From: Candidatus Vogelbacteria bacterium
Lineage (GTDB): Bacteria; Patescibacteriota; Minisyncoccia; Phycocordibacterales; XYD1-FULL-46-19
DNA: 42,721 bases
Direction: 5' to 3'
NCBI GenBank assembly: GCA_903864935.1
Contig: CAIPHT010000004.1
Coordinates: 1-42,721 of the forward strand
A program made the translations under genes and the position numbers. Positions 6,790 to 42,721 of the stretch are shown piece after piece; the stretch's first letter is position 1; each line of letters starts with the position of its first letter. The notes beneath the pieces are model-generated. The model saw only the letters and a program-made list of their open reading frames with translations, made no database searches and was not told the origin of the DNA.

Positions 6790-7206
6790 ATGGAACCACA
6801 CATCCCAAATTCGCGCATTGAAGAAAGGGCGAAAGTCGGACCACATCTAACCAGCCATGAGCACTTAGGCCTCAATGGCCGTTTAGCTTTGATTATCACT
6901 AATATGGTCGGCACTATGTGGTGTGCTTATATCTTTGCTATTATCGCTCTTATTAGTTTGCCGGCCGCTATCAACGGAGGAACAGCCACCCTTGTCTCTT
7001 GGGTGGCTCAGACTTTCCTTCAGCTGGTTTTGCTCTCAGTTATTATGGTGGGGCAGAAGGTCTCGGCCGAGGCGAGCGACAAGCGAGCCTTGCAAACATT
7101 CCAAGATACTGAGGCGTTGCTAAAAATTCAAGACGATATCCATCGTTTGATCAAAATCAATAATGATCAAACTGAAGAAATTCGCAAATTTGTGATTAAG
7201 GGTTAG
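6790..7206 (+). CDS. DUF1003-like membrane protein
   Basis: VGTMWCAYIF...SWVAQTFLQLVLLSVIMVGQ followed by a coiled-coil tail. Confidence 0.75.
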   Translation: MEPHIPNSRIEERAKVGPHLTSHEHLGLNGRLALIITNMVGTMWCAYIFAIIALISLPAAINGGTATLVSWVAQTFLQLVLLSVIMVGQKVSAEASDKRALQTFQDTEALLKIQDDIHRLIKINNDQTEEIRKFVIKG

Positions 7207-7981
7207 TGCTCGAAGCGGTCGAGGTGCCAGTGGTGCCAGGGAGCTTGAAGGCCTTGAGACCCTTAAGAATTTTGTTGATATCTTGGCGAGCGGTGACAAG
7301 ATCTTGTTGCCCAACTTTAATGTCGGAGTGAGACAACTTCAGAGCGTCTTTGTTGCTGGCGACAATGGTGGCGTCATCATTATCGGGGGTAAGGTTGACA
7401 ACGTGTGAGACGGCGGCGGTGGCTTGAGTCTTAGCGTCACTTATCTTGGCGGTCAATTCAGTAAAAATTGTATTTAGGCTCGTGATATCTTTACCCGCGT
7501 TTTGGGCTTCGGTGAGACGAGTTTGTAGTTTGTTGGCCACAACGCTTAAGTCACCGGCGACAGTATTGAGACGGTCGGCGGAGGCGATAATGCGTCCCTG
7601 GGGGATAACGAGCGCAAAGATGCGGAAGGATCCGGTAATGGACTTAACATCAGTCTTTAGAGTGGCAAGATCAGTATCGGCATCAATCTTAGACTTGAGT
7701 GTATTGAGATTAGTAATTTGGGTTTGAATTTGGCTAGCGAGCGATGCCTTGTTGTCGGCGGAGACAAGTTTCATATCTTGGATACGGGTGTTGAGCTCGG
7801 TCAAGGCGTCAATGCGATTGGCGATAGCCTTGTCGCCACGGTCAATCAAGCGGGCCACGGCCGCATCAAGTTTCTTGGCCTTAGGGCTTGAGCTGGCTGC
7901 TGTCTCGGCAGAAGCGATGCTTGTGGAGAGAGTAAGAGCAAGGAGCAAGCTGGCGATAATGAGGAAGTTTATTTTTTTCAT
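7196..7981 (-). CDS. Secreted alpha-helical/coiled-coil protein
   Basis: Signal peptide MKKINFLII...ASA, then long heptad-rich helices. Confidence 0.85.
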   Translation of the reverse strand: MKKINFLIIASLLLALTLSTSIASAETAASSSPKAKKLDAAVARLIDRGDKAIANRIDALTELNTRIQDMKLVSADNKASLASQIQTQITNLNTLKSKIDADTDLATLKTDVKSITGSFRIFALVIPQGRIIASADRLNTVAGDLSVVANKLQTRLTEAQNAGKDITSLNTIFTELTAKISDAKTQATAAVSHVVNLTPDNDDATIVASNKDALKLSHSDIKVGQQDLVTARQDINKILKGLKAFKLPGTTGTSTASSTNP

Positions 7982-8020
7982 AGTTTTTTGTCTTGTCTAA
8001 TGAGTTTAGCTATTAATAAT

Positions 8021-8329
8021 TTATTGAACAGGGGCTTCAGTTTGGTTCTTCAAACTTTGGTCGACACTGGCGGCATCGGTTCCGAGATTTTTTAACTGAG
8101 AGTCAATGGCCGTGAGATCTTGATCGATTGAGGCATCAGAGCTATCGGTTGTGGAGATAATGTCAGGGGACTGATTGACCGCGGTGGTGGTAGCGACCCC
8201 CGTGTCTGTTGTGGTGGCGATGTTGGATTTATCTCCAGCCACATTTTTGCTGGCATACCACCAGCCGAGACCGGCTAAGATTATGACGATAATAATGACG
8301 ATGAGGACAATTTTTGCGGTTGTAGACAT
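8021..8329 (-). CDS. Membrane-anchored Thr/Ser/Asp-rich protein
   Basis: N-terminal TM, low-complexity linker, helical tail; co-oriented with 7196-7981. Confidence 0.8.
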   Translation of the reverse strand: MSTTAKIVLIVIIIVIILAGLGWWYASKNVAGDKSNIATTTDTGVATTTAVNQSPDIISTTDSSDASIDQDLTAIDSQLKNLGTDAASVDQSLKNQTEAPVQ

Positions 8330-8441
8330 AATAATTAATTTTTAAACTAAACGAATAATTACTCTTAATCATATGCCACTTTGGCCTAAATCACAATAAT
8401 CTACCCATTTTCTAAAATTTGTGTTACAATCCTATTTCTTT

Positions 8442-9890
8442 ATGGCTGGCGAAACAATTATCAATTTTGACCAAGTGTCCTTCAAATATGGACATAACCA
8501 CCCCATCTTAGATGAGGTGGACTTTTCGGTGCGCCGAGGGACTAAGATTACTCTCATGGGGCAGAACGGGGCAGGCAAGAGCACCATCTTCCAACTCTTG
8601 ACCGGAGTCGCGAGACCCGATGAGGGGATTATTAATGTCTCAGAAAAAATCAGTATCGCGACGGCCCGCCAAGTGATCCCGCGCGACCAGTTGGAACTCA
8701 CTGTACGCGAATTCTTCCAAAAATGTTTTAAGCAAAAAGTTTATGATATTGATCCCCGGATTGATGCGGTCTTAGAGACCGTCAATCTTAGCGCTCCTCA
8801 CGACCGCTTGGTAAAATCTTTTTCTGGTGGACAGCAGGCGCGCTTGCTCTTGGCGGGGGCCTTAATTCAAGATCCCGACCTCTTGCTTCTAGATGAGCCG
8901 ACTAATAATCTCGATAAGGCTGGTATTGCTCACCTGACTGACTTTCTCAAAAATTATGAGAAGACTTGTATTGTAATCTCGCACGATGCTGATTTCTTAA
9001 ACGCTTTTACCGATGGCATTCTCTACCTCGATGTCTTCACTAAGAAGGTTGAGCAATACGCTGGCAATTATTTTGATGTGGTTAAACAAATCACGGCCAA
9101 GATTGAGAAAGATAATGCCAAGAATGCTCAACTCTCTAAGACCATTCAAGAGAAAAAAGATAAGGCCAATTTCTTTGCCAATAAGGGTGGTAAGATGCGT
9201 ATCCTGGCCAAGCGTATGCGTGACTTGGCTGAAGAGATGGAGGAAGACAAGGCCGATATCCGCCGTGAGGACAAAACCATTAAACCTTTTATTATCCCGG
9301 CTCAAGCCGATTTGTCTGGTGAGATTCTTAATATCAGTTCGTGCTCGGTGATTAAGAATCATAAATCAACGACAAGGAAGGTGAATATTTCGCTTAAGAA
9401 AAATCAGCACCTACTTTTGTCTGGTCCGAATGGGATTGGGAAGAGCACTTTGCTTGAAGCGATTGCTAGTGGCGAGTCTAAGGGCTCGGTGATTGCCCCA
9501 GGGATAAAGGTTGGTTATTACCGTCAAGATTTCTCGACTCTAAATTTCGAAGACACTGTGAGGGAGTCTTTGCTCTCGGTGATGACAGAACAGATTGAGG
9601 AGAGACTGCGCGCTACAGCGGCCAGTTTCTTGATTGGAGCGGACCTAATTAATTCTAAAATTGGCAATTTGTCTGAAGGGCAAAAAGGTCTCGTGGCCTT
9701 TGCTCGACTTGTTTTGCAAAAGCCCGGTCTTCTTATTCTTGATGAGCCAACTAATCACATTAACTTCCGTCATTTACCGGTTATTGCCGAGGCACTTAAT
9801 AAATATCAGGGTGCGATGATTCTCGTTAGCCACGTGCCCGAATTCGTGGCCCAGATTCGCATTGATGAGACCCTTGATTTGGGGAAATAG
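8442..9890 (+). CDS. ABC-F family ATPase
   Basis: Two NBDs (GQNGAGKST/FSGGQQ/LLLLDEPTNNLD and GPNGIGKST/LSEGQK/LILDEPTNH) and no TM domain. Confidence 0.93.
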   Translation: MAGETIINFDQVSFKYGHNHPILDEVDFSVRRGTKITLMGQNGAGKSTIFQLLTGVARPDEGIINVSEKISIATARQVIPRDQLELTVREFFQKCFKQKVYDIDPRIDAVLETVNLSAPHDRLVKSFSGGQQARLLLAGALIQDPDLLLLDEPTNNLDKAGIAHLTDFLKNYEKTCIVISHDADFLNAFTDGILYLDVFTKKVEQYAGNYFDVVKQITAKIEKDNAKNAQLSKTIQEKKDKANFFANKGGKMRILAKRMRDLAEEMEEDKADIRREDKTIKPFIIPAQADLSGEILNISSCSVIKNHKSTTRKVNISLKKNQHLLLSGPNGIGKSTLLEAIASGESKGSVIAPGIKVGYYRQDFSTLNFEDTVRESLLSVMTEQIEERLRATAASFLIGADLINSKIGNLSEGQKGLVAFARLVLQKPGLLILDEPTNHINFRHLPVIAEALNKYQGAMILVSHVPEFVAQIRIDETLDLGK

Positions 9891-10006
9891 AATCCGTTGA
9901 CTTGTTGGCAGATGTATCCTATACTAGGGGTAACAAAAGTTGCTATCTAAACAAGTCGATTTATATATCTCTATTGTACATTATCAAGTTTAAGCCAAAC
10001 AATTAA

Positions 10007-10204
10007 ATGACTGGTACTATCAAAAGACTCACCCCCAACGGTTTTGGTTTCATCGGAGTTGAAGGTATGGAGAAGGATCTCTTCTTCCATAGCAATGCTC
10101 TTGTTGGCGTTACCTTCGAAGAGCTTCGTGAAGGTGATCTCCTCAGCTTTGAAACTGAGCAAACCCAGAAGGGTCCTAATGCTGTCAACGTTCAGCGTGC
10201 CTAA
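10007..10204 (+). CDS. Cold-shock domain protein
   Basis: GFGFI (RNP1), DLFFH (RNP2), KGPNAVNV. Confidence 0.95.
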   Translation: MTGTIKRLTPNGFGFIGVEGMEKDLFFHSNALVGVTFEELREGDLLSFETEQTQKGPNAVNVQRA

Positions 10205-10224
10205 ACGTTCTCGTTGATTTCAGT

Positions 10225-10261
10225 GCAAAAACCCCGCGCCTAACCGGCGCGGGGTTTTTGC
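10225..10261 (+). terminator. Intrinsic terminator (bidirectional type)
   Basis: gcaaaaaccccgcgcc-taacc-ggcgcggggtttttgc. Confidence 0.85.
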
Positions 10262-10366
10262 TTGACCCACTTTCTCTCTGGTGTTATGACTAAGAAGGAA
10301 TTGTCGTCAGCTTGTTGCTGACTTGAAATATCCAAACTCAAACCCTAAGGGGAAAGGAAATAAGCC
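10262..10366 (+). promoter_or_regulatory. Shared promoter/leader block, copy A (diverged)
   Basis: TTGAC..TGGTGTTATGACTAAG..GAATTG..gtcagc-ttgtt-gctgac-TTGAAATAT..aaaccc..GGAAAGGA; homologous to 14657-14760 and 15816-15919. Confidence 0.8.
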
Positions 10367-11080
10367 ATGGAACTTTTTGTTGAGTTGTCGGGTCTGGGGC
10401 ACTATGGTGTCTGCACTATTGTCCCGCCGGACCTTCTTCGTGCGCTTCGAGACATGATTGAGAATTCTGCTCATGCGGCGAAATTCAAAAGCTCAATCAG
10501 CGAGACTGGCCCCTTCGGTGTCGACGAAGCTCTCCGCCCCAACTTCTATGGGGACAAGGAAGAAGCTCTTAAGGTGATCTGGATTCCGGGGAAACTTGAG
10601 GGGGCCATGCTTTCGCACGAGATCTTGAGGCAGTGCGCTTCTCTGCTCGAACCTCAGTCTCCGCTGCCGGTTGATGACAAGACCTTGACTTTGGAGGTCG
10701 CCGTGGGGAGGTCTGGTAGTGATGGCTGGTATGTTCACGCTCGTTTCAGCGCTCCTGTCTGGGACGTGATCGAGGGACCCTTTTTCCCAGAGATCCTACC
10801 TCACATCAATCGGGAAATTCGTGACTGGTGGGAGGACTATAATGGGTGGAGGGGAAAGCGTGAGTGCACGACCCTCTTCAAAGGGAGAGATGGTCCGACT
10901 TTGCAAATCTACCAATCCTCTGGTAATGGCTTGTGGATCGCTGGCAGCCGGAAGGATCGGGAACTTGGCCAAGAATTCCAGTTCTACGACCATAACACCG
11001 ATTACCATGCACAGGCCTTTGCCCACATTATTGGCCTGTGCTTCGTCTTGAAACACTGCCGACAGTCTGTCGGTGCCTGA
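10367..11080 (+). CDS. Orphan hypothetical protein
   Basis: 237-aa ORF with SD, own promoter block and downstream hairpin; no family recognised. Confidence 0.75.
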   Translation: MELFVELSGLGHYGVCTIVPPDLLRALRDMIENSAHAAKFKSSISETGPFGVDEALRPNFYGDKEEALKVIWIPGKLEGAMLSHEILRQCASLLEPQSPLPVDDKTLTLEVAVGRSGSDGWYVHARFSAPVWDVIEGPFFPEILPHINREIRDWWEDYNGWRGKRECTTLFKGRDGPTLQIYQSSGNGLWIAGSRKDRELGQEFQFYDHNTDYHAQAFAHIIGLCFVLKHCRQSVGA

Positions 11081-11183
11081 GTTTGGTCCTGGCCCGCCCT
11101 CGCCTCCGGCGAAGGCGGGCCTTCTTTTTTTATGCTACAATTCACCCTGTGGAGTAGTTTGCTATACTCCACAGGGTAAACAC

Positions 11184-12440
11184 ATGAACAAAAATTCAGG
11201 AAATTATGATGTTATTGTGATTGGGGGTGGTCCCTCAGGGATGATGGCGGCGGGGCGAGCGGGCGAGCGCGGGCTCAAGGTTCTTCTCTTGGAAAAAAAT
11301 CGCGGGCTTGGCGACAAGCTCAAGATTACCGGTGGTGGCCGTTGCAATATTACCAACGCGGAGATGGATAAGGAAATTTTGCTCCGGCATTATGGTGCGA
11401 GCAAAGATTTTCTTCATTCGGCTTTTGCCCAATATGGCGTAGAGGATACTTTTAAATTTTTTGAAGCACGGGGTTTGCCTTTGGTGATTGAAGCGAGGAA
11501 ACGCGCTTTTCCTAAAACGCAACGCGCCGAAGATGTCTTCAAAGTGCTCGAAAAATATTTAAGTGACAATAATGTGGTAGTAAAAACTGGGGTGAGAGTC
11601 TCAGAGATTAGGCCTGGTGAAGGTAAGATTAAATCTGTCGTGGCTGGTGGTGTCGAATATGAAGCGCGAGCCGTCGTGCTTGCCACGGGTGGCTTATCGC
11701 ATCCAGAGACGGGGGCGACGGGCGATGGCTTCTCGTGGCTCACGCGGCTTGGCCACACTGTTAAACAGCCGACCCCTGATATCGTACCTTTGGCTGTCAA
11801 AGAGAAATGGGTTAAAGATCTCTCGGGACTTTCGCTGTCATTTATGAAAATTACTTTTTTCTTGGATAAGAAGAAGACTTTTTCTAAAACTGGCAAAATT
11901 CTCTTCACTCATTTTGGTCTCTCGGGGCCTTTGATTATGAATAGCGCTCGAGCGGTTAAAGATTTGCTTAAGGCTGGGGTGGTGACCGCCGAGATAGATA
12001 CTTATCCGGATACCGATTTGGGCGCGTTAGAAAAAAATATGATCAAAATTTTTGATCAGAATAAAAATCGCGATCTCAAAAATATTATGAAAGAGCTCAC
12101 GCCCGAGGGTCTGGACGAGACCGTAATGGTCCTGCTTAAAAATATTGATTTCAATAAGAAGGTGCACAGTGTGACAGTGGAGGAGAGAAAGCAACTTACT
12201 CACTTGCTCAAAGCCTTACCGCTCACCATCACCGGCCTCCTGGGCTTCGAGCGCGCCGTCGTCTCGGATGGGGGAGTAATGCTCACCGAGATGGATATGC
12301 GCACCATGCAATCTAAGCTTTTTAGTAATTTATACATTACCGGAGACCTTCTTAATATCACTCGCCCGTCGGGCGGTTATTCGCTCCAACTCTGCTGGAC
12401 GACCGGTTTTGTCGCGGGGGATAAGCTCTTGCCTAGCTAA
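11184..12440 (+). CDS. HI0933/YhiN/BaiN-family NAD(P)/FAD flavoprotein
   Basis: GGGPSG, KITGGGRCNITN, ATGGLSHPETGATGDG, LFTHFGLSGP, GGYSLQ. Confidence 0.93.
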   Translation: MNKNSGNYDVIVIGGGPSGMMAAGRAGERGLKVLLLEKNRGLGDKLKITGGGRCNITNAEMDKEILLRHYGASKDFLHSAFAQYGVEDTFKFFEARGLPLVIEARKRAFPKTQRAEDVFKVLEKYLSDNNVVVKTGVRVSEIRPGEGKIKSVVAGGVEYEARAVVLATGGLSHPETGATGDGFSWLTRLGHTVKQPTPDIVPLAVKEKWVKDLSGLSLSFMKITFFLDKKKTFSKTGKILFTHFGLSGPLIMNSARAVKDLLKAGVVTAEIDTYPDTDLGALEKNMIKIFDQNKNRDLKNIMKELTPEGLDETVMVLLKNIDFNKKVHSVTVEERKQLTHLLKALPLTITGLLGFERAVVSDGGVMLTEMDMRTMQSKLFSNLYITGDLLNITRPSGGYSLQLCWTTGFVAGDKLLPS

Positions 12441-12502
12441 TTTGGGCAGTATCTGGTATAATTAGGGTATATTAGTAATTAACAATATTTTAATAAAGTA
12501 TT

Positions 12503-12757
12503 ATGGCTACAACTAATTCAGCTTTCATGAAGCCTATGACCATCAGCGAAGAACTCGCCGAGGTTGTTGGTAAGGGTCCAATGCCTCGTTCAGAGGTTGT
12601 TAAGGCTCTTTGGGTCTATATTAAGAAGCACGATCTTCAGGATCCTAAGAACAAGCGCAATATTGTTGCTGACGATAAGCTTAAGGCCGTCTTCGGTGGC
12701 AAGGATGTCGTCAACATGTTTGAGATGACCAAGCTCGTCTCCAAGCACCTTTCCTAA
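12503..12757 (+). CDS. Stand-alone SWIB/MDM2-domain protein
   Basis: SEELAEVVG...PRSEVVKALWVYIKKHDLQDPKNKRNIVADDKLKAVFG. Confidence 0.93.
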   Translation: MATTNSAFMKPMTISEELAEVVGKGPMPRSEVVKALWVYIKKHDLQDPKNKRNIVADDKLKAVFGGKDVVNMFEMTKLVSKHLS

Positions 12758-12764
12758 GATATTT

Positions 12765-12808
12765 AAACAAAACCCCGCGGCGCTTTTGCGTCGCGGGGTT
12801 TTGTTTTT
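12765..12808 (+). terminator. Intrinsic terminator
   Basis: aaacaaaaccccgcggcgc-tttt-gcgtcgcggggttttgttt. Confidence 0.85.
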
Positions 12809-12824
12809 ATCAAGAATGCCCAAC

Positions 12825-12863
12825 ATCAAAAATGTGCAACACCGAGTGTTGCACATTTTTGAT
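12825..12863. repeat. Palindromic junction repeat, copy 1 (REP-like)
   Basis: atcaaaaatgtgcaacac-cga-gtgttgcacatttttgat with 18-bp perfect arms; abuts TTGACT. Confidence 0.9.
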
Positions 12864-12998
12864 TGACTTTATTTGTCGAACGGGGCAATCTGATAATGGA
12901 AACTAGGTCCGTGGACTGCTACATAAGCATCTTCTTACTTGGCAAGGGGTGTGATGCCATTCGGGCGTGTGTAGATAAGCGGATACAGGAGAATTGAC

Positions 12999-13715
12999 AT
13001 GAGAGTAGAGTTCCACCAGAGGGCGAATAGTTACGATGCCGCCAGAGCGGCAAGATCGGCAATCTCAAGGCACTTCCTTCAAGAGATTAAGCGCTCTGAT
13101 GAGCCGGGCGCAACGGGGAAAATTCGTCTTGGATCTATCGATGGAGTCTCGCTTGGAGAAGACTTTCCCCAATTGAAGGGCTGGAGCAGTGGACTTCAAT
13201 CAGTGATGGCGAGCTTTGCCGATCTTAAGAGTGGCCTAATGAACAGTTCTTTGGATTTGGTCATCGAGCACAATGGTCATCAGCCTGTCGCTATTGGAGG
13301 ATCCTTCTTCCTTCGTGTTCCTTTCGGTGACGGTATTTTTCTTGAAGTGAATTTTAGGGAAGAGCTTGATGGCTCGTGTGCTGACCCGATGGAAATTCTG
13401 GGACCGCCAACGTCAGAGAATCTCACTCTTTCTCGAGTTCTCATGGCTGGGCAGAGGAAGTTGACGGTCGTTGAGCCTAAGTTTCCAGACAGCGATTGCC
13501 GGTCCATGGCGAGCGCCTTGACTCGATCCTTGCAGAAGAGACAGGGATACTATGGCTGGGAGAAAGAGGGCACTCTTGATGGCCAGGATCTTCATTCCGA
13601 GCTTCCCCTCCGGGCAGCGAGGCTTGAGCTGACCCTGGTCGAAGAAGGGTTCCACTTCACCCACGGGACTCTCGGCCCGACATTGCGTCACCTGGCCGAG
13701 CAGTACCTGACCTAG
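12999..13715 (+). CDS. Orphan hypothetical protein
   Basis: 238-aa ORF, SD AGGAG, long leader, own terminator; no family recognised. Confidence 0.75.
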   Translation: MRVEFHQRANSYDAARAARSAISRHFLQEIKRSDEPGATGKIRLGSIDGVSLGEDFPQLKGWSSGLQSVMASFADLKSGLMNSSLDLVIEHNGHQPVAIGGSFFLRVPFGDGIFLEVNFREELDGSCADPMEILGPPTSENLTLSRVLMAGQRKLTVVEPKFPDSDCRSMASALTRSLQKRQGYYGWEKEGTLDGQDLHSELPLRAARLELTLVEEGFHFTHGTLGPTLRHLAEQYLT

Positions 13716-13737
13716 ACGACACCGCTTCATCATAGAG

Positions 13738-13779
13738 AACCGCCCCACTAGGGCCTCTCTTGGTGGGGCGGTTTTTCTT
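13738..13779 (+). terminator. Intrinsic terminator, related to 306-347
   Basis: aaccgccccactaggg...tcttggtggggcggtt followed by a T tract. Confidence 0.8.
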
Positions 13780-13793
13780 CTGGAAAAAAACAC

Positions 13794-13824
13794 TTGACAA
13801 AAAGATTATCTTAAGATAATCTTT
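13794..13824 (+). promoter_or_regulatory. TA promoter with autoregulatory operator
   Basis: TTGACA-17-TAATCT overlapped by the perfect 24-bp palindrome aaagattatcttaagataatcttt (13801-13824). Confidence 0.8.
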
Positions 13825-13828
13825 AGAT

Positions 13829-14047
13829 ATGACTAAAATAATTGGTTTGAAGGAATTAAGGGAGAACACCGAGACTTATTTGACCCAGGTTAAGAAAGGT
13901 AATAGCTTTTTAGTTTTGCGTCGTTCTGAGCCAATCTTTAAAATCTCACCCGTTGATGAGGCCGAAGAGCTTTGGGAGAAGGTAATCGATTTTACTAAGA
14001 TCAAAAAGGGTGGTGTCTCTCTTGATCAGATTCTTGCCCGACTTTAA
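13829..14047 (+). CDS. Type II antitoxin, Phd/YefM family
   Basis: IIGLKELREN...VKKGNSFLVLRRSEP pattern; immediately upstream of a RelE-like gene. Confidence 0.85.
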   Translation: MTKIIGLKELRENTETYLTQVKKGNSFLVLRRSEPIFKISPVDEAEELWEKVIDFTKIKKGGVSLDQILARL

Positions 14048-14050
14048 TTT

Positions 14051-14293
14051 ATGGATAAAATAAGCAAAGCTCTGGCTAAGTTAACAGAAAAGGAAAAAGA
14101 AGCGATTGCCGAAATTTTTGTAAAAATTAAAGCTGGCAAAATTGCTGGCTTAGATCTTAAGAAACTTAAGGGCTACGATGATATTTATCGCGTGCGTTTT
14201 GGTAAATGGCGAGTGATTTATAGAACAGAAAAAGGGAATAAGATTTTTCTCGTCTGGTTTGAAAGACGAAGCGATAATACTTATAAATTTTAA
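14051..14293 (+). CDS. Type II toxin, RelE/ParE family
   Basis: KKLKGYDDIYRVRFGKWRVIY and C-terminal RRSDNTY. Confidence 0.88.
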   Translation: MDKISKALAKLTEKEKEAIAEIFVKIKAGKIAGLDLKKLKGYDDIYRVRFGKWRVIYRTEKGNKIFLVWFERRSDNTYKF

Positions 14294-14333
14294 TCAAAAA
14301 ATGGCCAACACCGGGTGTTGGCCATTTTTTGAT
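14293..14333. repeat. Palindromic junction repeat, copy 2 (covariant)
   Basis: atcaaaaaatggccaacac-cgg-gtgttggccattttttgat; abuts TAGACA. Confidence 0.9.
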
Positions 14334-14426
14334 AGACACAGGGGATTTTTGTTGTGCTAATAATGGCTCAGGTTTTGGACAAAGAATAGCAATGTCTCAA
14401 ATTCTCTACGGAGAGTAGGTGATTGT

Positions 14427-14570
14427 ATGACAGAGAAAAGATTGACCCCCAAACAACGCAAAGTGGTGATGGCCCTGGACCGGCGCATCTCTCTTTGCGA
14501 CGAGACCACCGTAGGGGAACGCACTCGAGAGCTACTAATCAAGCTCCGCCAACAACTTGCTCTGTCCTGA
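14427..14570 (+). CDS. 47-aa orphan protein (not in the ORF track)
   Basis: MTEKRLTPKQRKVVMALDRRISLCDETTVGERTRELLIKLRQQLALS*; SD AGGTGA upstream and hairpin plus T6 at 14589-14620. Confidence 0.6.
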   Translation: MTEKRLTPKQRKVVMALDRRISLCDETTVGERTRELLIKLRQQLALS

Positions 14571-14622
14571 TACTTCTCAGGACAAATCCACCTCGAGCCA
14601 GACGGCCCGGGGTGTTTTTTAT

Positions 14623-14653
14623 AAAATGTGCAACACCGAGTGTTGCACATTTT
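14623..14653. repeat. Palindromic junction repeat, copy 3
   Basis: aaaatgtgcaacac-cga-gtgttgcacatttt, identical core to copy 1, followed by tgaTTGACC. Confidence 0.9.
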
Positions 14654-14656
14654 TGA

Positions 14657-14760
14657 TTGACCGTTTTTCTTTTTGGTGTTATGACTAAGGCAGAATTGCT
14701 ATCGGCCCAAGGCTGATTTGAAATATATGACCATCTAAACCCAAACCCCCGGAAGGAGGA
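14657..14760 (+). repeat. Shared promoter/leader block, copy B
   Basis: 104 nt with 3 mismatches to 15816-15919. Runs from TTGAC through hairpin atcggc-ccaag-gctgat and TTGAAAT to SD GAAGGAGGA. Confidence 0.95.
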
Positions 14761-14767
14761 TAGACTT

Positions 14768-15757
14768 ATGTTGCCTGATGTTGATGAGAAAAAACAGGCC
14801 TATAGGGCGATTGCCTCGTTACGTTATATCGATTGGGAGACGGTAGTCAAAGCCGCTCAAAAGTTTCTCCCCGAAGAGGAGAGAACCAGTGAGTACCTTC
14901 GCCTCGTTGACGCTGAAGTCTCTGATAGCCATACTCTTGGTCTTTTCAAGACTCTGGCCCTGTTGCCCGAAGCGGAACGGGTGGTAAAAGTCAAAGAGCT
15001 CATCCAGAACCCTCGACTTGTTAACCATATAGCTGAGCTGATTAATCTTCTGCCCGAGGCAGAGAAAGCCAATGAGAACAAACGACTGTTCGACTCTTAT
15101 CTCGCTAATGGCCACCTGTCTTCGGCTCAAGAGCTTGGTCGGGCAATTGGTCGGAATCTTACAGACAAGGATGTTCTTTTTGTCATTGAGGAAGCAAAAA
15201 GGTACCACTACGGCGAAGTCTATATGGCCAAGGCACTGGACTTTCTCTCGGAGCCTTCACGAAGCGAAGAACTGAACAAGCTTTTGGTGGGGATGATAAC
15301 CAAGAGCTCCCCCAAAGCGATCTTGGAAGTTGCCCTGATCGTTGGGCACGACCTTACCGATAAAGAAAAGGAGCTCATTCTCGAAAGCTGTCTCTCTCGG
15401 TCAGCGCTTTCTTATTCCAAGGAAGCCGCCAAACTTCTTGGCCGGGAATTAACGTTACTAGAGGTGGAGAGAATCTTTGAGGGCCAACTTGTCGTTCCTC
15501 ATTGCCTCGAGCTTGCTCTTGGCACCGCCCAAATTCTCCCCGAACCGAACAGGACCATTTGTCGGGAGAAAATCTTGGCAAGGGCTCTTCAAACGGAGAA
15601 TTACTTTGATTCGGTACAAAAAATAGTCAAAGTAATTGGCCGGGAATTGACACGACCAGAGCTTCTCGCTTTTCTTGAACGGATATCTGGCGAAGAGACG
15701 TATCGACAATCTTCTGTGGCCACCGTTGTCAACGAACTCCTAAAGGGAACTGACTGA
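14768..15757 (+). CDS. Orphan alpha-helical repeat protein
   Basis: Recurring LPE..R and (I/V/L)G(R/H).LT..(E/D) motifs; strong SD. Confidence 0.8.
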   Translation: MLPDVDEKKQAYRAIASLRYIDWETVVKAAQKFLPEEERTSEYLRLVDAEVSDSHTLGLFKTLALLPEAERVVKVKELIQNPRLVNHIAELINLLPEAEKANENKRLFDSYLANGHLSSAQELGRAIGRNLTDKDVLFVIEEAKRYHYGEVYMAKALDFLSEPSRSEELNKLLVGMITKSSPKAILEVALIVGHDLTDKEKELILESCLSRSALSYSKEAAKLLGRELTLLEVERIFEGQLVVPHCLELALGTAQILPEPNRTICREKILARALQTENYFDSVQKIVKVIGRELTRPELLAFLERISGEETYRQSSVATVVNELLKGTD

Positions 15758-15778
15758 CCCCCCCACCAAGAACAAAGA

Positions 15779-15817
15779 GGCCCCGCCTCGAAGTTTGAGG
15801 TGGGGTTTCTTTTTTTT
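15779..15817 (+). terminator. Intrinsic terminator
   Basis: ggccccgcctcga-agt-ttgaggtggggtt; the T tract runs into the next TTGAC. Confidence 0.85.
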
Positions 15818-15919
15818 GACTCTTTTTCTTTTTGGTGTTATGACTAAGACAGAATTGCTATCGGCCCAAGGCTGATTTGAAATATATGACCATCTAAACC
15901 CAAACCCCCGGAAGGAGGA
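15816..15919 (+). repeat. Shared promoter/leader block, copy C
   Basis: Near-identical to 14657-14760; identity stops right after the SD. Confidence 0.95.
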
Positions 15920-15926
15920 AGAAGAT

Positions 15927-16622
15927 ATGAATTTCGCCAGTGGCGCTATTACGCCTGGGTACTACTATTTGTATATGCCCAATACCTTGAGACGCTTGCG
16001 TCTTGAGATGGATGCTGACGGCATTGCTGCCGATGAGATTTTGGATCACACAAGCCCTGATATGTTTTGTGGCAGGGAGTATCCTCACTCGAGAAACCTT
16101 GATCTCGGCAACGACCAATTTGGGCAGAGCCTGTCGCCGGAACTTTCTGCCTCCGTTTGCAAAATGACCGAGCTCTTGAAGTTCGATGGTGCCAGGTGGT
16201 TCAGTCTTCACGCTCATTACTCCTTGTTCCCGGAGCTTGCCGAGTATCTAGTCCCCGAGCTGCTCTATGGGGAAGATGATCGTATTGATGAGGAGAGACA
16301 GCGGATGAAAAAAGAACTAAAGAAAAAGAAGTTCTCACGTCGCTCCGTGAAGATGCCCTTCCAAGAGCTTGATGAAGATTTTGGCTATCAGGATTACGCT
16401 TGTGATAACCCTGGTCGAACCATTCTTGAGCGGTTGAATTACGAACTTTGGGAAGGACGGTCACGCTTCGGGCAGGTCAATTCTCGCGAGATCCACTCAA
16501 TGGCCACGCCCTATCAGGTCGTCGAGTTCAAGAAGCTCGTCTTAGACGGCTATTTAAAAGAGTGCGAAGCAGCATCTCTTCTATCGAACGCCGGATTTCT
16601 TGAAGTTATTGAGAGCTTCTGA
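15927..16622 (+). CDS. Orphan hypothetical protein
   Basis: 231-aa ORF, strong SD, no visible similarity to 14768-15757. Confidence 0.75.
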   Translation: MNFASGAITPGYYYLYMPNTLRRLRLEMDADGIAADEILDHTSPDMFCGREYPHSRNLDLGNDQFGQSLSPELSASVCKMTELLKFDGARWFSLHAHYSLFPELAEYLVPELLYGEDDRIDEERQRMKKELKKKKFSRRSVKMPFQELDEDFGYQDYACDNPGRTILERLNYELWEGRSRFGQVNSREIHSMATPYQVVEFKKLVLDGYLKECEAASLLSNAGFLEVIESF

Positions 16623-16646
16623 CTATTTTCATGGCTACACAACAAA

Positions 16647-16692
16647 CCCCGTCGCGCGCATGCGCGACGGGGTGTTTCTTTTTATTTTTTTT
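16647..16692. terminator. Terminator between convergent genes
   Basis: ccccgtcgcgc-gcat-gcgcgacgggg followed by a T-rich tract. Confidence 0.8.
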
Positions 16693-16694
16693 GA

Positions 16695-17162
16695 TTAAGC
16701 TTTAACTTTAGTCTTGGTCGAAGTTTTTGCTTTAGCTTTTGTTGCTGGCTTGGTCGCTTTTTCAGAACACTTCGGACAACGGCAGCCGTGCGGTTTGATA
16801 TACTCGTTGAAGTATTCTTTGCCATAGTCGTAGAGAACTTCTTCACCCTTTTTTATCTTGCGCAGTGACATAATAAAGACTTGGCCTTTAATAATCTCGG
16901 CTTCAGCATTGGGCCGGCACGAGTGATTGAAGTAACGGGCCTTATTCTCTCGGATGGAGCCATCAATCGTTTTCTTTGAATTTATCTCGAAGAGATACTT
17001 ACTATTAATAGTATATTCTTCTTCAGGCGAGATGGTGCGACCGAAGTACTCCATCAGGCAGGCGCCCTTAGGGATATCTTCGCCGGCAAAAATGCCGAGA
17101 CCAGCAATTGAACGTTTCACTAATAATTTATAATCACCGGGTGTATATTTTGTTTTTTTCAT
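16695..17162 (-). CDS. SET-domain protein-lysine methyltransferase
   Basis: GLGIFA, ARYFNHSCRPNA, IKKGEEVLYDY, post-SET CRCPKC, Lys/Thr/Ala-rich tail. Confidence 0.93.
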   Translation of the reverse strand: MKKTKYTPGDYKLLVKRSIAGLGIFAGEDIPKGACLMEYFGRTISPEEEYTINSKYLFEINSKKTIDGSIRENKARYFNHSCRPNAEAEIIKGQVFIMSLRKIKKGEEVLYDYGKEYFNEYIKPHGCRCPKCSEKATKPATKAKAKTSTKTKVKA

Positions 17163-17207
17163 ACCAAGGCATTATACCTTAAGCGCTTTTATTGGTAAAA
17201 TAGGGGA

Positions 17208-17828
17208 ATGAAGAAGGAGACTTTTGGCTTAACCAAAACGGAGTTAAAAATTTTAAAAAAGCTCTCGACCCCGATTAAAATTCAGGATTGGCTTGACGCC
17301 GTGCCTCTTAATCATGAGAGGGACGGTGAGACTTATATGTCCCCGCGCAAAGCTCTTCGCGAGAACAAAATGCATTGCTTGGAGGGGGCCCTTGTCGCGG
17401 CGCTGTGCCTTGCTCTCCAAGGCGAAGAGCCACTCCTTCTCGATCTTAAGGCGCCCAAAGATGTTGACCATGTTGTGGCTCTATATAAGAAGAACGGTTA
17501 TTGGGGGGCGATTAGTAAGACTAACCACGCGGCGCTCCGCTTCCGTGACCCGGTTTATAAAACGATTCGCGAATTGGCCGTGTCATACTTTAATGAATAT
17601 TTTGATAATGGCACAAAGAAAAAAACTTTGCGGAGTTATGCTGGCCCATTTAATCTTAAGAAATTGGGGACAGATTGGGTCACGACTGAAGAAGACCTCT
17701 TCTCTTTACCTTTTGTTCTCGATGCTTTGCCTCACAAGCAAATTTTCCCTAAAGCGAATGAGAAATTTATCCGTCCGGCCGACAAGATGGAGCTAAAGGC
17801 GGGGAGCATTGTCGAGTGGCCGAGTTAA
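17208..17828 (+). CDS. Conserved hypothetical protein, possibly transglutaminase/NAT-like fold
   Basis: SPR...HCLEGAL, DHVVALY, WGAISKTNH...RDPVY motifs. The fold assignment is tentative. Confidence 0.65.
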   Translation: MKKETFGLTKTELKILKKLSTPIKIQDWLDAVPLNHERDGETYMSPRKALRENKMHCLEGALVAALCLALQGEEPLLLDLKAPKDVDHVVALYKKNGYWGAISKTNHAALRFRDPVYKTIRELAVSYFNEYFDNGTKKKTLRSYAGPFNLKKLGTDWVTTEEDLFSLPFVLDALPHKQIFPKANEKFIRPADKMELKAGSIVEWPS

Positions 17829-17851
17829 TCTTTTGTGCTATACTGGCGCTC

Positions 17852-18712
17852 ATGAACAGGCTTCAAATTTTTCTCTTGGTCTCTCTAATTCTCGTTGTTG
17901 TTTTATTGGTGGGCGGGGGATTAGGTGGCTATTATACCTGGTCTCTTCATCAGAAAAATTTGTCACTTGAAGCGAAGAACAAAGAATTACAAACGTTGGT
18001 GACGACGACAAGTGGTGATTTGGCTAGCACCACGGCTCGACTTCAAGAAGAGGCGGCTAAAACCAACGAACTTTTTAGTCAGGTGAGCACGATTGCCTCG
18101 ACTGTTGGCACGCTTGATAAATTAAGTAAAACAGACAAAGAGTTATTAAAAAAATATTCTAAAATTTATTTTCTCAACGAGAATTATATTCCCGCGCGCT
18201 TAGCGACCATTACGCCTGCCTTTCTTTATAATCCTAAAGCCCCTTTCCTTATCCATGCTTCGGTCTGGCCCTATCTTGAGCGAATGATCGTTGCGGCCTC
18301 TTCCTCTGGCATTAATTTGCAAATCAATTCGGCTTACCGCTCTTTTGGTACGCAAGCGGCGCTTAAGAGCAATTATAAAGTGGTCTTTGGCTCGGGGGCT
18401 AATAAGTTCTCGGCCGATCAGGGCTACTCTGAGCATCAACTTGGCACCACTGTCGATATCACTACACCGAGCGTCGCCCCGACTTCGCTTAATTTTGCCA
18501 AGACGCCGGCCTATGACTGGTTACTTAAGAATGCTTATAGTTATGGCTTTATCTTGTCTTATCCTAAAGAGAATACCTACTATCAGTATGAGCCATGGCA
18601 CTGGCGCTTTGTCGGTGTGGCGCTCGCGACCAAGCTCCACGAAGAAAATAAATTCTTCTATAATTACCCACAGAGATTGATAGATACTTACTTGGTAAAT
18701 ATCTTCGACTAA
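17852..18712 (+). CDS. D-Ala-D-Ala carboxypeptidase, M15B/VanY family
   Basis: SAYRS, SEHQLGTTVD (SxHxxGxxxD), YEPWHWRF; N-terminal TM and coiled coil. Confidence 0.92.
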   Translation: MNRLQIFLLVSLILVVVLLVGGGLGGYYTWSLHQKNLSLEAKNKELQTLVTTTSGDLASTTARLQEEAAKTNELFSQVSTIASTVGTLDKLSKTDKELLKKYSKIYFLNENYIPARLATITPAFLYNPKAPFLIHASVWPYLERMIVAASSSGINLQINSAYRSFGTQAALKSNYKVVFGSGANKFSADQGYSEHQLGTTVDITTPSVAPTSLNFAKTPAYDWLLKNAYSYGFILSYPKENTYYQYEPWHWRFVGVALATKLHEENKFFYNYPQRLIDTYLVNIFD

Positions 18713-18721
18713 ACTATCAAG

Positions 18722-19690
18722 TTAAACTTTCTTCTCCTCGGCAATTTGATTGAGGATTTTTTTAAGTGGTTCGAGGCTCTCGTCGTCAATTACGGAGATA
18801 GCAAAAACTTCGGGGTTGAGTTTCTTGGCTTTGGTTAAGAGTTTCTTTAATTCTTTTTCTTCTACCATATCGCTCTTGGAGATAATTAGGTATTCTTTTT
18901 TCTTAGCGAGCTCGGGGTTATGAGCAGAGAGCTCGGCGCGAATAGTTTTGTAATCAGCCTCAATATCAGTGCTGTCGGCCGCGATGAAGTGGAAAATAAT
19001 TTTGGTGCGCTCAATATGGCGCAAGAATTTATGACCCAAGCCCTTACCCTCGGAGGCGCCTTCAATCAAGCCGGGGATATCAGCGAGCACGAGATCATAA
19101 TAAGCGCCGAGATTTGGCTCGAGGGTGGTGAAGGGGTAATTGGCCACCTTGCTCTTGGCATTAGTGAGCATGTTTAAAAGAGTAGATTTCCCTACATTAG
19201 GCAAACCAACGAAACCAACGTCGGCAATCATCTTAAGCTCTAAGAGGACGTCGCATTCTTCGCCGGGGAGTCCGGGTTGGAACTCTTGGGGCGTGGTATT
19301 CTCGGCCGAGCGGAACTTGAAGTTACCTTTGCCCCCATAGCCACCCTTGGCCACCAAAATTTTCTCACCAATGGAGAGCATCTCACGGTCCTTGCCGGTT
19401 GTGAGATTGTGGATAACGGTGCCCACTGGGATACGGAAGATGAGGTCCTCGCCATCAGGGCCGTCAACAAAATTGCCATGCCCACGACCACCGTCAGGGG
19501 CAATGAGATCCTTCTGGTAGCGGAATTGAGCTAGGGCTCCCAGGTCGGAGACCCCCTCGAAGATAACGCTTGCGCCCTTGCCACCGTTACCGCCATCTGG
19601 GCCCTGAGCCATCTTTAATTTTTTGAAGGCGACAGCGCCACGGCCCCCGTGGCCAGCCGCTACCTTTACTTGGACTTCGTCTAATAACAT
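18722..19690 (-). CDS. obgE: GTPase ObgE/CgtA
   Basis: Gly-rich Obg fold (GPDGGNGGKG), GLPNVGKST, YPFTT, DIPGLIEGASEGKGLGHKFLRHIER. Confidence 0.96.
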   Translation of the reverse strand: MLLDEVQVKVAAGHGGRGAVAFKKLKMAQGPDGGNGGKGASVIFEGVSDLGALAQFRYQKDLIAPDGGRGHGNFVDGPDGEDLIFRIPVGTVIHNLTTGKDREMLSIGEKILVAKGGYGGKGNFKFRSAENTTPQEFQPGLPGEECDVLLELKMIADVGFVGLPNVGKSTLLNMLTNAKSKVANYPFTTLEPNLGAYYDLVLADIPGLIEGASEGKGLGHKFLRHIERTKIIFHFIAADSTDIEADYKTIRAELSAHNPELAKKKEYLIISKSDMVEEKELKKLLTKAKKLNPEVFAISVIDDESLEPLKKILNQIAEEKKV

Positions 19691-19739
19691 AGTGTAGTGA
19701 GTATAGCACCTTTTTGGTCTTTTTGTTATAATTTGACTA

Positions 19740-20777
19740 ATGACCAACACTAAGCCTCGTCTCTACTTCCTATTGTTCTTATTGCTGGCTACCTCAGTTG
19801 TCGCTTATTTAATCCTTAAGCCGTTCTTGTCGGCCTTGGTTTTGGGTGCCGTTTTTGCCATTGTTTGTCAGCCTCTCTATCGCGCGCTTCTTCGCACCTA
19901 CAAACAGCAGGCGAGTCTGGCGGCGATAACGACCCTTCTCTTTGTTTTTATCTTTATTTTTGTTCCGCTCTTCTTAATTAGTTGGCAAGTTTTCGGCGAG
20001 GGGCAACAACTCTACGCTTCAATCTCAGGCAACTTCGATAATGCGAGCTTGGTATCTTGGGCCAATCTTTTGGGTGAGAGGCTTAAGAGTTTGTCTCCCG
20101 TTTTTGCCAGTTTCTCTTTTGATCTCAGTCTCTATCTTAAGAATGGTTTAGATTTCTTATTAAATAATTTTGGTTCAATCTTCCTCAACTTGGCGAGACT
20201 TATGACCGAGCTTCTCGTCTTCTTGTTTGCCTTTTATTATTTTCTAAGAGATGGCGCCAAAATAAAAAAGGCCATAGTGAGAATTAGTCCGCTTACTGAA
20301 GAGGATGACGAAATCATTATTAAGAAGATTATTCTTGCCGTGAACTCAGTGCTTAAGGGGAGCCTGCTTCTGGCTATTATCCAGGGGGCCCTTATTGCGG
20401 TTGGACTCTTTATCTTTGGAGTGCCGAGCCCTGTTCTCTGGGGATCGGTGGCCGCTATTGGTACGCTTATTCCTTTTGTCGGGACCACTTTGGTTGTGGT
20501 GCCGGCTACTCTTTATCTCTACTTCAATGGCCAGACCTTGGCGGCGCTCGGGATCTTGCTTTGGGGTTTAGTTTTCGTGGGGGCTACCGAGCACTTGCTC
20601 CGTCCACCGCTTGTCGGGCGAGGGATGAGCTTGCATCCACTACTCGTCTTGTTATCTGTCCTCGGGGGTCTATCTCTCTTTGGCCCCGTCGGCTTCATCC
20701 TCGGGCCACTTGTAGCCACCCTTCTTATGGTCCTACTAGATATCTGCTCAACTTTTGTCACCAAGGGCTCAGCCTAG
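19740..20777 (+). CDS. AI-2E family transporter
   Basis: Multi-TM; YFLRDG, IPFVGT, LRPPLVG..MSLHPL, GPVGFILGP. Confidence 0.92.
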   Translation: MTNTKPRLYFLLFLLLATSVVAYLILKPFLSALVLGAVFAIVCQPLYRALLRTYKQQASLAAITTLLFVFIFIFVPLFLISWQVFGEGQQLYASISGNFDNASLVSWANLLGERLKSLSPVFASFSFDLSLYLKNGLDFLLNNFGSIFLNLARLMTELLVFLFAFYYFLRDGAKIKKAIVRISPLTEEDDEIIIKKIILAVNSVLKGSLLLAIIQGALIAVGLFIFGVPSPVLWGSVAAIGTLIPFVGTTLVVVPATLYLYFNGQTLAALGILLWGLVFVGATEHLLRPPLVGRGMSLHPLLVLLSVLGGLSLFGPVGFILGPLVATLLMVLLDICSTFVTKGSA

Positions 20778-32698: not shown

Positions 32699-33087
32699 AA
32701 AATGTTACTCTTTTAGACGGTCGTCAAAAATGGTAACATTTTCAAATCAAAATTTATTAACACCAGTGACGGTCGTCTGAAAGTGTAATATTTTTTGATA
32801 GTAATCTGGAAGCTGTAATTTGGAAGCCGAGCTCCCAAAACGGGGGAGCGTGTGTTGTAATTATAAGCCGGTAACACTCGTGACGGTCGTCAGCAATGTT
32901 ACCTTTTTGCCTGCAAGTTAAAACTTATGCCACTAACGTGAGATTTTTTAGTGCCTGGTTTTTTACTGAACAAAATTTACAATTGTAAAAAATGTTCAGT
33001 GATTTTTGTTTCTAACTATAATCTAACGACCGCATCAAAATAGTTAGTCTTAACAAAATATGGACGGCCGTCTGAGGGATGTTAAGA
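32699..33087. repeat. Cluster of bipartite palindromes with GACGG(T/C)CGTC cores
   Basis: Cores at 32716, 32768, 32882 and 33063, each flanked at 6-8 nt by inverted TAAC/GTTA-type arms; related units at 32965-33000 and 33012-33047. Confidence 0.8.
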
Positions 33088-42580: not shown

Positions 42581-42721
42581 TGTTTTAGGCACACACATTT
42601 GGCGGTTTAATTAGCTGATAATCTTTCAAGAATTCGTTTGGCGTTTTGCCGTTTAAACCGCAATGTTCTAGATTGTTGTAGTATATATTCCACCTTTTTA
42701 ATTTCTTTTGCAAATCCGCAA
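42581..42721 (-). mobile_element. 3' end of a second copy of the IS481-like element
   Basis: Exact reverse complement of 1-140; begins with TGT. Confidence 0.8.

Follow-up and report, generated by a model that had tools for sequence, protein, structure and literature searches.

PeSL (promoter-early stem-loop) cassettes of T4-type phages are units of ~100 bp that combine a promoter with a stem-loop and end at the Shine-Dalgarno (SD) sequence and the start codon (PMC2839356). They stand mostly upstream of ORFans in hyperplastic regions, where recombination between copies inserts or deletes genes (PMC2839356; PMC4122927). A phage genome holds about 50 copies, and the stem-loop is a terminator combined with the promoter (PMC2839356). 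Promoter activity, terminator activity and mini-circles have been shown experimentally (Arbiol et al. 2010, PMC2839356; Comeau et al. 2014, PMC4122927). The present study concerns a repeated intergenic block from a Candidatus Vogelbacteria bacterium, found on contig CAIPHT010000004.1 of assembly GCA_903864935.1 (positions 1 to 42,721; this whole 42,721-nt stretch is called the window, and coordinates are positions in it). The genome amounts to 825 kb in 20 contigs and is 98.8% complete. Like the phage cassettes, the block is a conserved ~100-bp intergenic unit that ends at the SD/start codon; it has a putative sigma-70-like promoter and a predicted stem-loop. The locus is not a member of the PeSL family, and PeSLs are its closest described analogue.

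The block recurs with sharp edges in front of unrelated genes, is confined to this lineage, lies in segments that the nearest relative lacks and, at one of the genes, forms part of a mosaic upstream region. We lean, with modest confidence, towards reading it as a compact expression cassette that recombination has spread inside a plastic part of a small chromosome. On this view regulatory modules seem to have been shuffled locally, and a new class of RNA is not the likelier picture.

A repeat search of the window returned one family of three copies, at 14651-14760 (the reference, copy 2), 15810-15919 (95% identical, copy 3) and 10256-10365 (62% identical without gaps, copy 1). Compared in register, 14657-14760 and 15816-15919 are 104 nt long with exactly three mismatches, at 14662, 14663 and 14690, which bears out an earlier note on this DNA that had described two such copies running from the −35 element to the SD. 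Identity between copies 2 and 3 is 8 to 10 per 10 nt inside the block, rising at 14651, and 1 to 5 outside it, which is chance level. On the right it collapses at 14761, straight after GGAGGA and 7 nt before each ATG. The left edge is a T-run with TTGAC, behind two different terminator hairpins. Copy 1 is recovered by BLAST with 75% identity over 76 nt (10256-10331, E 1.3e-8), and its alignment to the other copies runs through to its own SD with one 8-nt gap. In all, the three copies follow three different terminator hairpins.

The order of elements is common to all copies: TTGACC, a 17-nt spacer, TG with TATGAC, ~7 nt, GAATTG, a hairpin of 6-7 bp, TTGAAATAT, a CA-rich stretch and a GGAGG-type SD. 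In copy 2 (block 14657-14760, + strand), these are the −35 TTGACC at 14657-14662, the TG-extended −10 TATGAC at 14680-14685, a predicted transcription start site (TSS) near 14690-14693, GAATTG at 14693-14698, hairpin arms at 14701-14707 and 14711-14717, TTGAAATAT at 14718-14726, the CA-rich spacer and the SD AGGAGG at 14754-14759. Copy 3 (15816-15919, +) differs from it by the three mismatches. In the diverged copy 1 (10256-10366, +), the −35 TTGACC lies at 10262-10267, the −10 TATGAC at 10285-10290, the hairpin arms GTCAGC and GCTGAC at 10306-10311 and 10317-10322, and TTGAAATAT at 10323-10331, followed by the CA-rich spacer and the SD AAAGGAA at ~10353-10359. Alignment confirmed the claim that GAATTG and TTGAAATAT are invariant across all three copies.

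The genes behind the block have nothing visible in common. Copy 1 precedes P0001 (10367-11080, +, 237 aa), copy 2 precedes P0002 (14768-15757, +, 329 aa, internally repetitive and all-helical) and copy 3 precedes P0003 (15927-16622, +, 231 aa). None of the three has a Pfam or PHROG family. BLASTP found no pairwise similarity among them (E values 0.6 or higher) and hhalign no profile similarity (probabilities 0.06-0.4%), so that the dissimilarity of the 329-aa and 231-aa products, claimed earlier for this pair, holds. The description of all three as orphans was only partly right. For P0003, neither a word-based search nor phmmer over 1.84 billion representatives found a homologue. P0002 has a single homologue at 50% identity (P0006), which was not found in metagenome contigs nor among 400 same-order genomes; in 3 of those 400 genomes there are distant partial matches to P0002. 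P0001, before which a diverged copy does stand as had been claimed, belongs to a sparse uncharacterized family, with homologues in 3 of 42 same-family genomes and in 18 other homologous clusters of a large protein database. The homologues in the three other genomes have unrelated upstream regions without the leader; therefore, the leader does not travel with the P0001 family. No relatives of P0001 or P0002 were found in viral sequences.

By their scores all three genes are coding in frame, with values in the lower range of the distribution for this genome. Their G+C of 0.49-0.54 compares with ~0.44-0.46 in the larger contigs. Of the 11 listed strain differences in P0003, 8 are synonymous third-position changes (binomial p 0.009). 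Its codon score together with these mostly synonymous variants therefore marks P0003 as a real coding gene. The Atlas model of P0002 is a helical repeat (alpha-solenoid), matched by repeat-protein look-alikes only (TM 0.5 or lower); for P0001 it yielded no feature hit that could be used. With pLDDT values of 51.5 for P0001 and 35.7 for P0003, the AlphaFold models are too low in confidence for fold comparison, and the low-confidence P0001 model contains strands. The suggestion that these are effector genes found no backing; no N-terminal signal-like hydrophobic stretch was seen by eye in the three translations.

All three copies lie on one strand within 6 kb, and BLAST, nhmmer --max and a covariance model found none beyond them in the genome. 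Such a genome-wide count had been proposed in the earlier note itself, which named a lack of further copies as telling against its view; by that measure its reading as a gene class or effector regulon fails. BLAST against 60 relatives gave only hits of 20-22 nt and no copy, and the covariance model found no copy in 100 relatives (best E 0.02). With filters off, the covariance model returned nothing below E 0.33 at the syntenic loci and at the loci of protein homologues. Two exact patterns had 0 matches in 185,579 species genomes, and the first of these patterns also had 0 matches in viral contigs and in metagenome contigs. The best same-genus covariance hit (genome G004) sits, by eye, in the infC-rpmI spacer and was taken as chance.

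The copies occupy two segments that vary between relatives. Segment 1 (10263-11184) consists of copy 1 and P0001 and lies between a cold-shock gene and an HI0933-like flavoprotein gene. Segment 2 (12764-16725, ~3.96 kb), between a SWIB gene and a SET-domain gene, contains the ORF P0005, a Phd/ParE pair, a small ORF, copy 2 with P0002 and copy 3 with P0003. Both segments are without counterpart in the closest relative (G008), where the flanking DNA is 74-82% identical and the flanking flavoprotein 92% identical. The order there is cold-shock gene, 285 nt, HI0933-like gene, SWIB gene, 82 nt, SET-domain gene; the 285 nt at the site of segment 1 are unrelated, and the 82 nt at the site of segment 2 hold one hairpin terminator. 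In a second relative (G007), both slots are filled differently: the first has an apparent DEAD-box helicase gene (identified by eye), and the toxin-antitoxin pair of segment 2 lies across the SWIB gene from its place here. All genes with the leader therefore occupy two variable slots, one on either side of a conserved pair of genes. This is what the comparison of orthologous loci suggested in the earlier note brought out.

The region upstream of P0002 is composed of two parts with different matches. A terminator hairpin with TTGATTGAC, here called TermA, lies upstream of P0005 (12829-12868, +), and a second TermA with TTGATTGAC lies at 14623-14662 (+), where it is fused at the −35 element to leader copy 2. 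These two stretches are identical at 39 of 40 positions up to TTGAC and divergent after it. Beyond that TTGAC, 14657-14760 matches 15816-15919, which has a different terminator hairpin, TermB, directly upstream (15774-15812, +). Given the TermA match on the left and the copy 3 match on the right, the upstream region of P0002 is therefore a mosaic with its joint at the −35 element. To judge from the letters, this arrangement supports a past exchange. Together, the segments absent from G008 and this mosaic lend some support to the idea, put forward in the earlier note, that ORFs were swapped behind a fixed expression platform.

Reuse of regulatory modules in this genome is not limited to this block. 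An identical 31-nt terminator hairpin is present at four loci, 12829-12859, 14623-14653, C17 82709 and C18 8168 (−), where C with a number denotes another contig of the genome. P0005 (12999-13715, +; 238 aa, no Pfam family) has the terminator and −35 module without the leader. The genome holds 116 intergenic repeat pairs of 40 nt or more. One of them, at C17 69685-69774 and 70627-70716, is a promoter-bearing repeat of 90 nt (84% identical) with TTGACA, 17 nt and a TG-extended TATAAT; it precedes two consecutive genes (205 aa and ~65 aa) whose translations are visibly unlike.

The cassette would comprise a promoter, a short 5′ untranslated region (5′-UTR), an unstructured CA-rich spacer and a strong SD, and the first ~45 nt of the 5′-UTR can form a 5′-terminal stem-loop. 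Recombination would have copied this cassette before three unrelated, lineage-specific genes, with crossovers in features common to every intergenic region, namely the terminator T-run with the −35 element on the left and the SD on the right. Because the crossovers would fall in such generic features, the copies would begin and end at functional boundaries. The tandem arrangement leader, P0002, terminator, leader, P0003 is the product to be expected if recombination within the cassette inserted or duplicated one gene unit. Promoter activity, the TSS, the stabilizing role of the hairpin and the recombination mechanism are all points that we infer.

With regard to the promoter, TTGAC-17-TATAAT is the commonest promoter-like pattern in this genome. 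Among the 46 hexamers that start with TA behind TTGAC-17, TATAAT occurs 11 times and TATGAC three times, and these three are the block copies. It is plausible, from the motifs, that the block carries a sigma-70-type promoter (TTGACC, 17 nt, TG-extended TATGAC).

Public lake-water DNA runs contain the locus. A related strain in run X5, from a second study, has copy 1 with P0001 as well as copy 3 with P0003; therefore, the multi-copy state is not an assembly artifact. In the same run, 12971-14572 and 14840-15640 are uncovered by reads, which is not evidence of absence. A joint from 10110 to 11184 in X5 was disregarded, as its shorter side has only 27 letters.

Several observations weigh against spread by recombination as the favored reading. 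Three copies are too few for statistics on shuffling. In the −10 hexamer TATGAC, C replaces the T that is usual at position 6, and on account of this final C the promoter goes uncalled in the consensus scan. Copy 1 differs from copies 2/3 chiefly in the hairpin, at 10 of 19 positions (counted by eye), yet the stem persists between unchanged flanks. This pattern is a hint that the transcribed part is under selection, over and above simple copying. Furthermore, neither a recombinant nor an empty allele was demonstrated. Run X4 has a 350-nt contig (depth 5.3) that joins TermA and the leader directly to P0003, with a reported joint from 12862 to 15816. Its first 34 letters match 14623-14656 equally well, and its three “other letters” equal the mismatch count of copies 2 and 3. 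In the same run, however, the contig with P0002 extends from 14772 to 15802, suggesting coverage gaps that would leave exactly this chimeric path. The best explanation for the joined contig is a de Bruijn chimera that arose at low coverage over the 70-nt identical stretch, and it was rejected as evidence for a P0002-deleted allele. Besides, scans of 8 proteins with PHROGs and of 19 with Pfam brought up no gene of a phage or mobile element.

The main rival holds that the hairpin is a 5′ stabilizer or a regulatory element. In its full form, the transcribed part would be a lineage-specific cis-regulatory RNA placing the three genes under one control, with copying secondary; it could be the target of a small RNA or a protein, a thermosensor, or a 5′ stabilizer with a regulatory role. 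The hairpin arms read ATCGGCC/GGCTGAT in copies 2/3 and GTCAGC/GCTGAC in copy 1, with one double compensatory change, one change from G-U to A-U and one lost pair, and so the covariation reported in the earlier note was right in substance. The survival of the stem and the invariant GAATTG and TTGAAATAT speak for such an RNA. So does RNAalifold, which predicts a helix that starts near the putative 5′ end and encloses the hairpin (17 pairs, three of them with changes on both sides; 94% of cells paired, compared with 27-45% when the partner is slid). Moreover, the X5 strain has no listed difference in 10271-10364, although neighboring coding DNA differs by 4-12%; as 105 further differences lie outside the list, this is a hint only. 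On the other hand, single-sequence folds are no more stable than shuffles (z −0.46, −0.23 and −1.42), and 23 of 500 column shuffles equal the observed covariation, with effectively two independent sequences, which makes the leader covariation marginal and the evidence for a regulatory RNA weak. The leader is unmatched in Rfam even in E-value mode, where sub-threshold hits fall only on neighboring terminator hairpins; at the gathering score the whole window has 0 matches. The lack of further copies in the genome, the relatives and the public collections goes against a functional RNA that marks a co-regulated class, as do the fold energies and the covariation, and we regard a cis-regulatory RNA as rather unlikely. 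Two specific roles were set aside. An attenuator is disfavored because the terminator scan does not call the conserved stem-loop, which lies downstream of the predicted TSS, terminator-like, and sequestration of the SD by a C-run is disfavored because the C-run is not conserved in copy 1.

The same palindrome, at ~+10 to +27, could instead act in DNA, as an operator for a repressor, making the block a shared promoter-operator unit. It is perfect or near-perfect and just downstream of the predicted TSS in all copies, and a 47-aa ORF (14427-14570) directly upstream of copy 2 has a DNA-binding look, which is by eye only and unsupported. This ORF, however, matches nothing in Pfam or PHROG and its coding score is close to zero, the half-site differs between copy 1 and copies 2/3 at symmetric positions, which fits structure better, and no other site was found in the genome; an operator is quite improbable. 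The adjacency of P0002 and P0003 behind a common upstream block would also suit ancient tandem paralogues that have kept their upstream region but are no longer recognizable as relatives in their coding parts. Yet the blocks are 97% identical and the coding parts at chance identity from the first codon, which is incompatible with one duplication date, and the lengths and predicted secondary structures of the proteins differ. The sharp boundaries and the hhalign values below 1% agree with the view of the earlier note that ordinary gene duplication is no explanation, and paralogy is very hard to credit. A further alternative takes the block as the end of a mobile element, such as a MITE (miniature inverted-repeat transposable element) or IS (insertion sequence) end with an outward promoter, or as an integron-like attachment platform. 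The genome does have other dispersed intergenic repeats, including a ~190-nt element in six copies, and the island carries a toxin-antitoxin pair. No copy, however, is bordered by terminal inverted repeats, the only inverted repeats being terminator hairpins; the copies keep to one strand within 6 kb with none elsewhere in the genome; and there is no integrase, transposase or recombinase among the 19 proteins scanned (6790-20777). A match to such an element end or to an Rfam family, which would have told against the earlier note, was thus not found, and we give a mobile-element origin very little weight. Slighter still is the chance that a conserved leader peptide of 11 codons is encoded in the block and works as a regulatory upstream ORF (10286-10321, 14681-14716 and 15840-15875), with its ATG inside TTATGACTAAG, the presumed −10 element, and its stop the TGA of GCTGA. 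Frame, start and stop are kept in the three copies, as are the M-T-K start and E-L at codons 5-6. Against this, the ATG is only 24 nt after the −35 element with a terminator just upstream, and since it falls in the presumed −10, the ORF would start outside the transcript. The codon changes are mostly non-synonymous (4 of 6 changed codons), and the sole SD-like sequence, GGTG, is 2-3 nt from the ATG.

Some further features of the locus and genome deserve mention. The toxin-antitoxin pair inside segment 2 is a Phd/YefM-like antitoxin with a ParE-like toxin (13829-14293, +). The flanking SWIB/MDM2-domain gene (12503-12757, +) and SET-domain gene (16695-17162, −) have eukaryote-like chromatin domains and sit side by side in the closest relative; the present genome has another, weaker SET match at C6 80984-81271. 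A diverged version of the 31-nt terminator hairpin, with compensatory stem changes, is found at 14298-14343 of the window, and lake-water contigs hold the hairpin in further contexts. The ends of the window, 1-140 and 42581-42720, are inverted copies of 140 nt, identical to the ends of other contigs, and probably represent assembly-graph overlap at a repeat.

Other intergenic repeats were also seen. The six copies of the ~190-nt family (76-88% identity) lie at C2 9792-9988, C2 25054-25230, C2 27054-26865 (−), C5 63803-63985, C14 3113-3295 and C7 97449-97597. The family has long-range complementary ends, internal hairpins and a MITE-like or structured-RNA-like look, and for one copy Rfam returned nothing at E 0.001 or below. 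The 90-nt repeat on C17 resembles, at its left end, the right end of this family. A 115-nt block, 83% identical at two unlinked sites (window 32959-33073 and C6 6420-6534), holds a terminator hairpin, a TATAAT-like stretch and a second hairpin, with no Rfam match in the window or at the C6 copy. A 129-nt repeat of structured look (C5 14716-14844 and C7 58399-58527, 78% identical) adjoins a tRNA gene at one copy; its neighboring ORFs are unrelated, and it has no Rfam match. A 118-nt repeat (C1 4354-4471 and C12 1378-1495) is 97% identical.

The acquisition and expression of lineage-specific genes in very small, recombination-poor genomes is poorly understood. The locus is a clean example of a whole expression signal, from the −35 element to the SD, reused for unrelated new genes, with a second layer of interchangeable terminators on top of the reused cassette. 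Its scope is very small: with three copies in one species it is a local curiosity, and its explanation is of a known kind. A bolder extension of the favored reading, which we hold to be possible and on the doubtful side, is that this is a cellular counterpart of PeSL shuffling, in which, in this reduced genome, homologous recombination at the shared cassette and terminators inserts, deletes and re-heads ORFans without an integrase. If so, newcomer genes would get a ready-made, stabilized expression signal, and the intergenic regulatory modules themselves would be the gene-capture machinery of plastic regions. Should other strains show the same pattern, the notion behind PeSLs, that recombination can use regulatory cassettes as its substrate, would reach beyond T4-type phages to a bacterial chromosome, and an uncultivated lineage would gain a compact natural expression cassette.

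Among other known systems, the upstream homology box of Borrelia burgdorferi (ospE/ospF-related erp genes), reportedly described by Marconi et al. in 1996 and Sung et al. in 1998 and 2000, is a conserved promoter region in front of differing coding parts, for which recombination has been invoked. Those genes lie on multiple prophage plasmids and encode lipoprotein families with common leader peptides. Our block likewise places one upstream promoter region before unlike coding parts, whereas the proteins here have nothing in common and all copies are in one chromosomal region. In the 5′-terminal stem-loops that stabilize mRNA, for example those of the ompA 5′-UTR in E. coli and the aprE leader in B. 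subtilis, there is a similar architecture to the one predicted here, with a helix within a few nucleotides of the putative 5′ end, an unstructured spacer and an SD; there is no sequence relationship, and here the arrangement is a prediction from sequence. Unlike MITE or IS ends, the block has no flanking inverted repeats and is not dispersed, its three sites being within 6 kb on one strand. Unlike integron cassettes, its junctions are the terminator T-run/TTGAC and GGAGGA with no common core site, and the region scanned for proteins (the 19 noted above, 6790-20777) holds no integrase.

In comparison with PeSLs, the present locus has only three copies, is on a bacterial chromosome, has its conserved stem-loop in the predicted leader and keeps its terminators separate and interchangeable. 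As to an origin from phage PeSLs, the island proteins had no PHROG match, and viral contigs gave no pattern or protein match. What the two have in common is a position directly upstream of unrelated, rare or unique ORFs in regions that differ between close relatives, and a gene flanked by two cassette copies, as in the excision/insertion model proposed for the phage cassettes.

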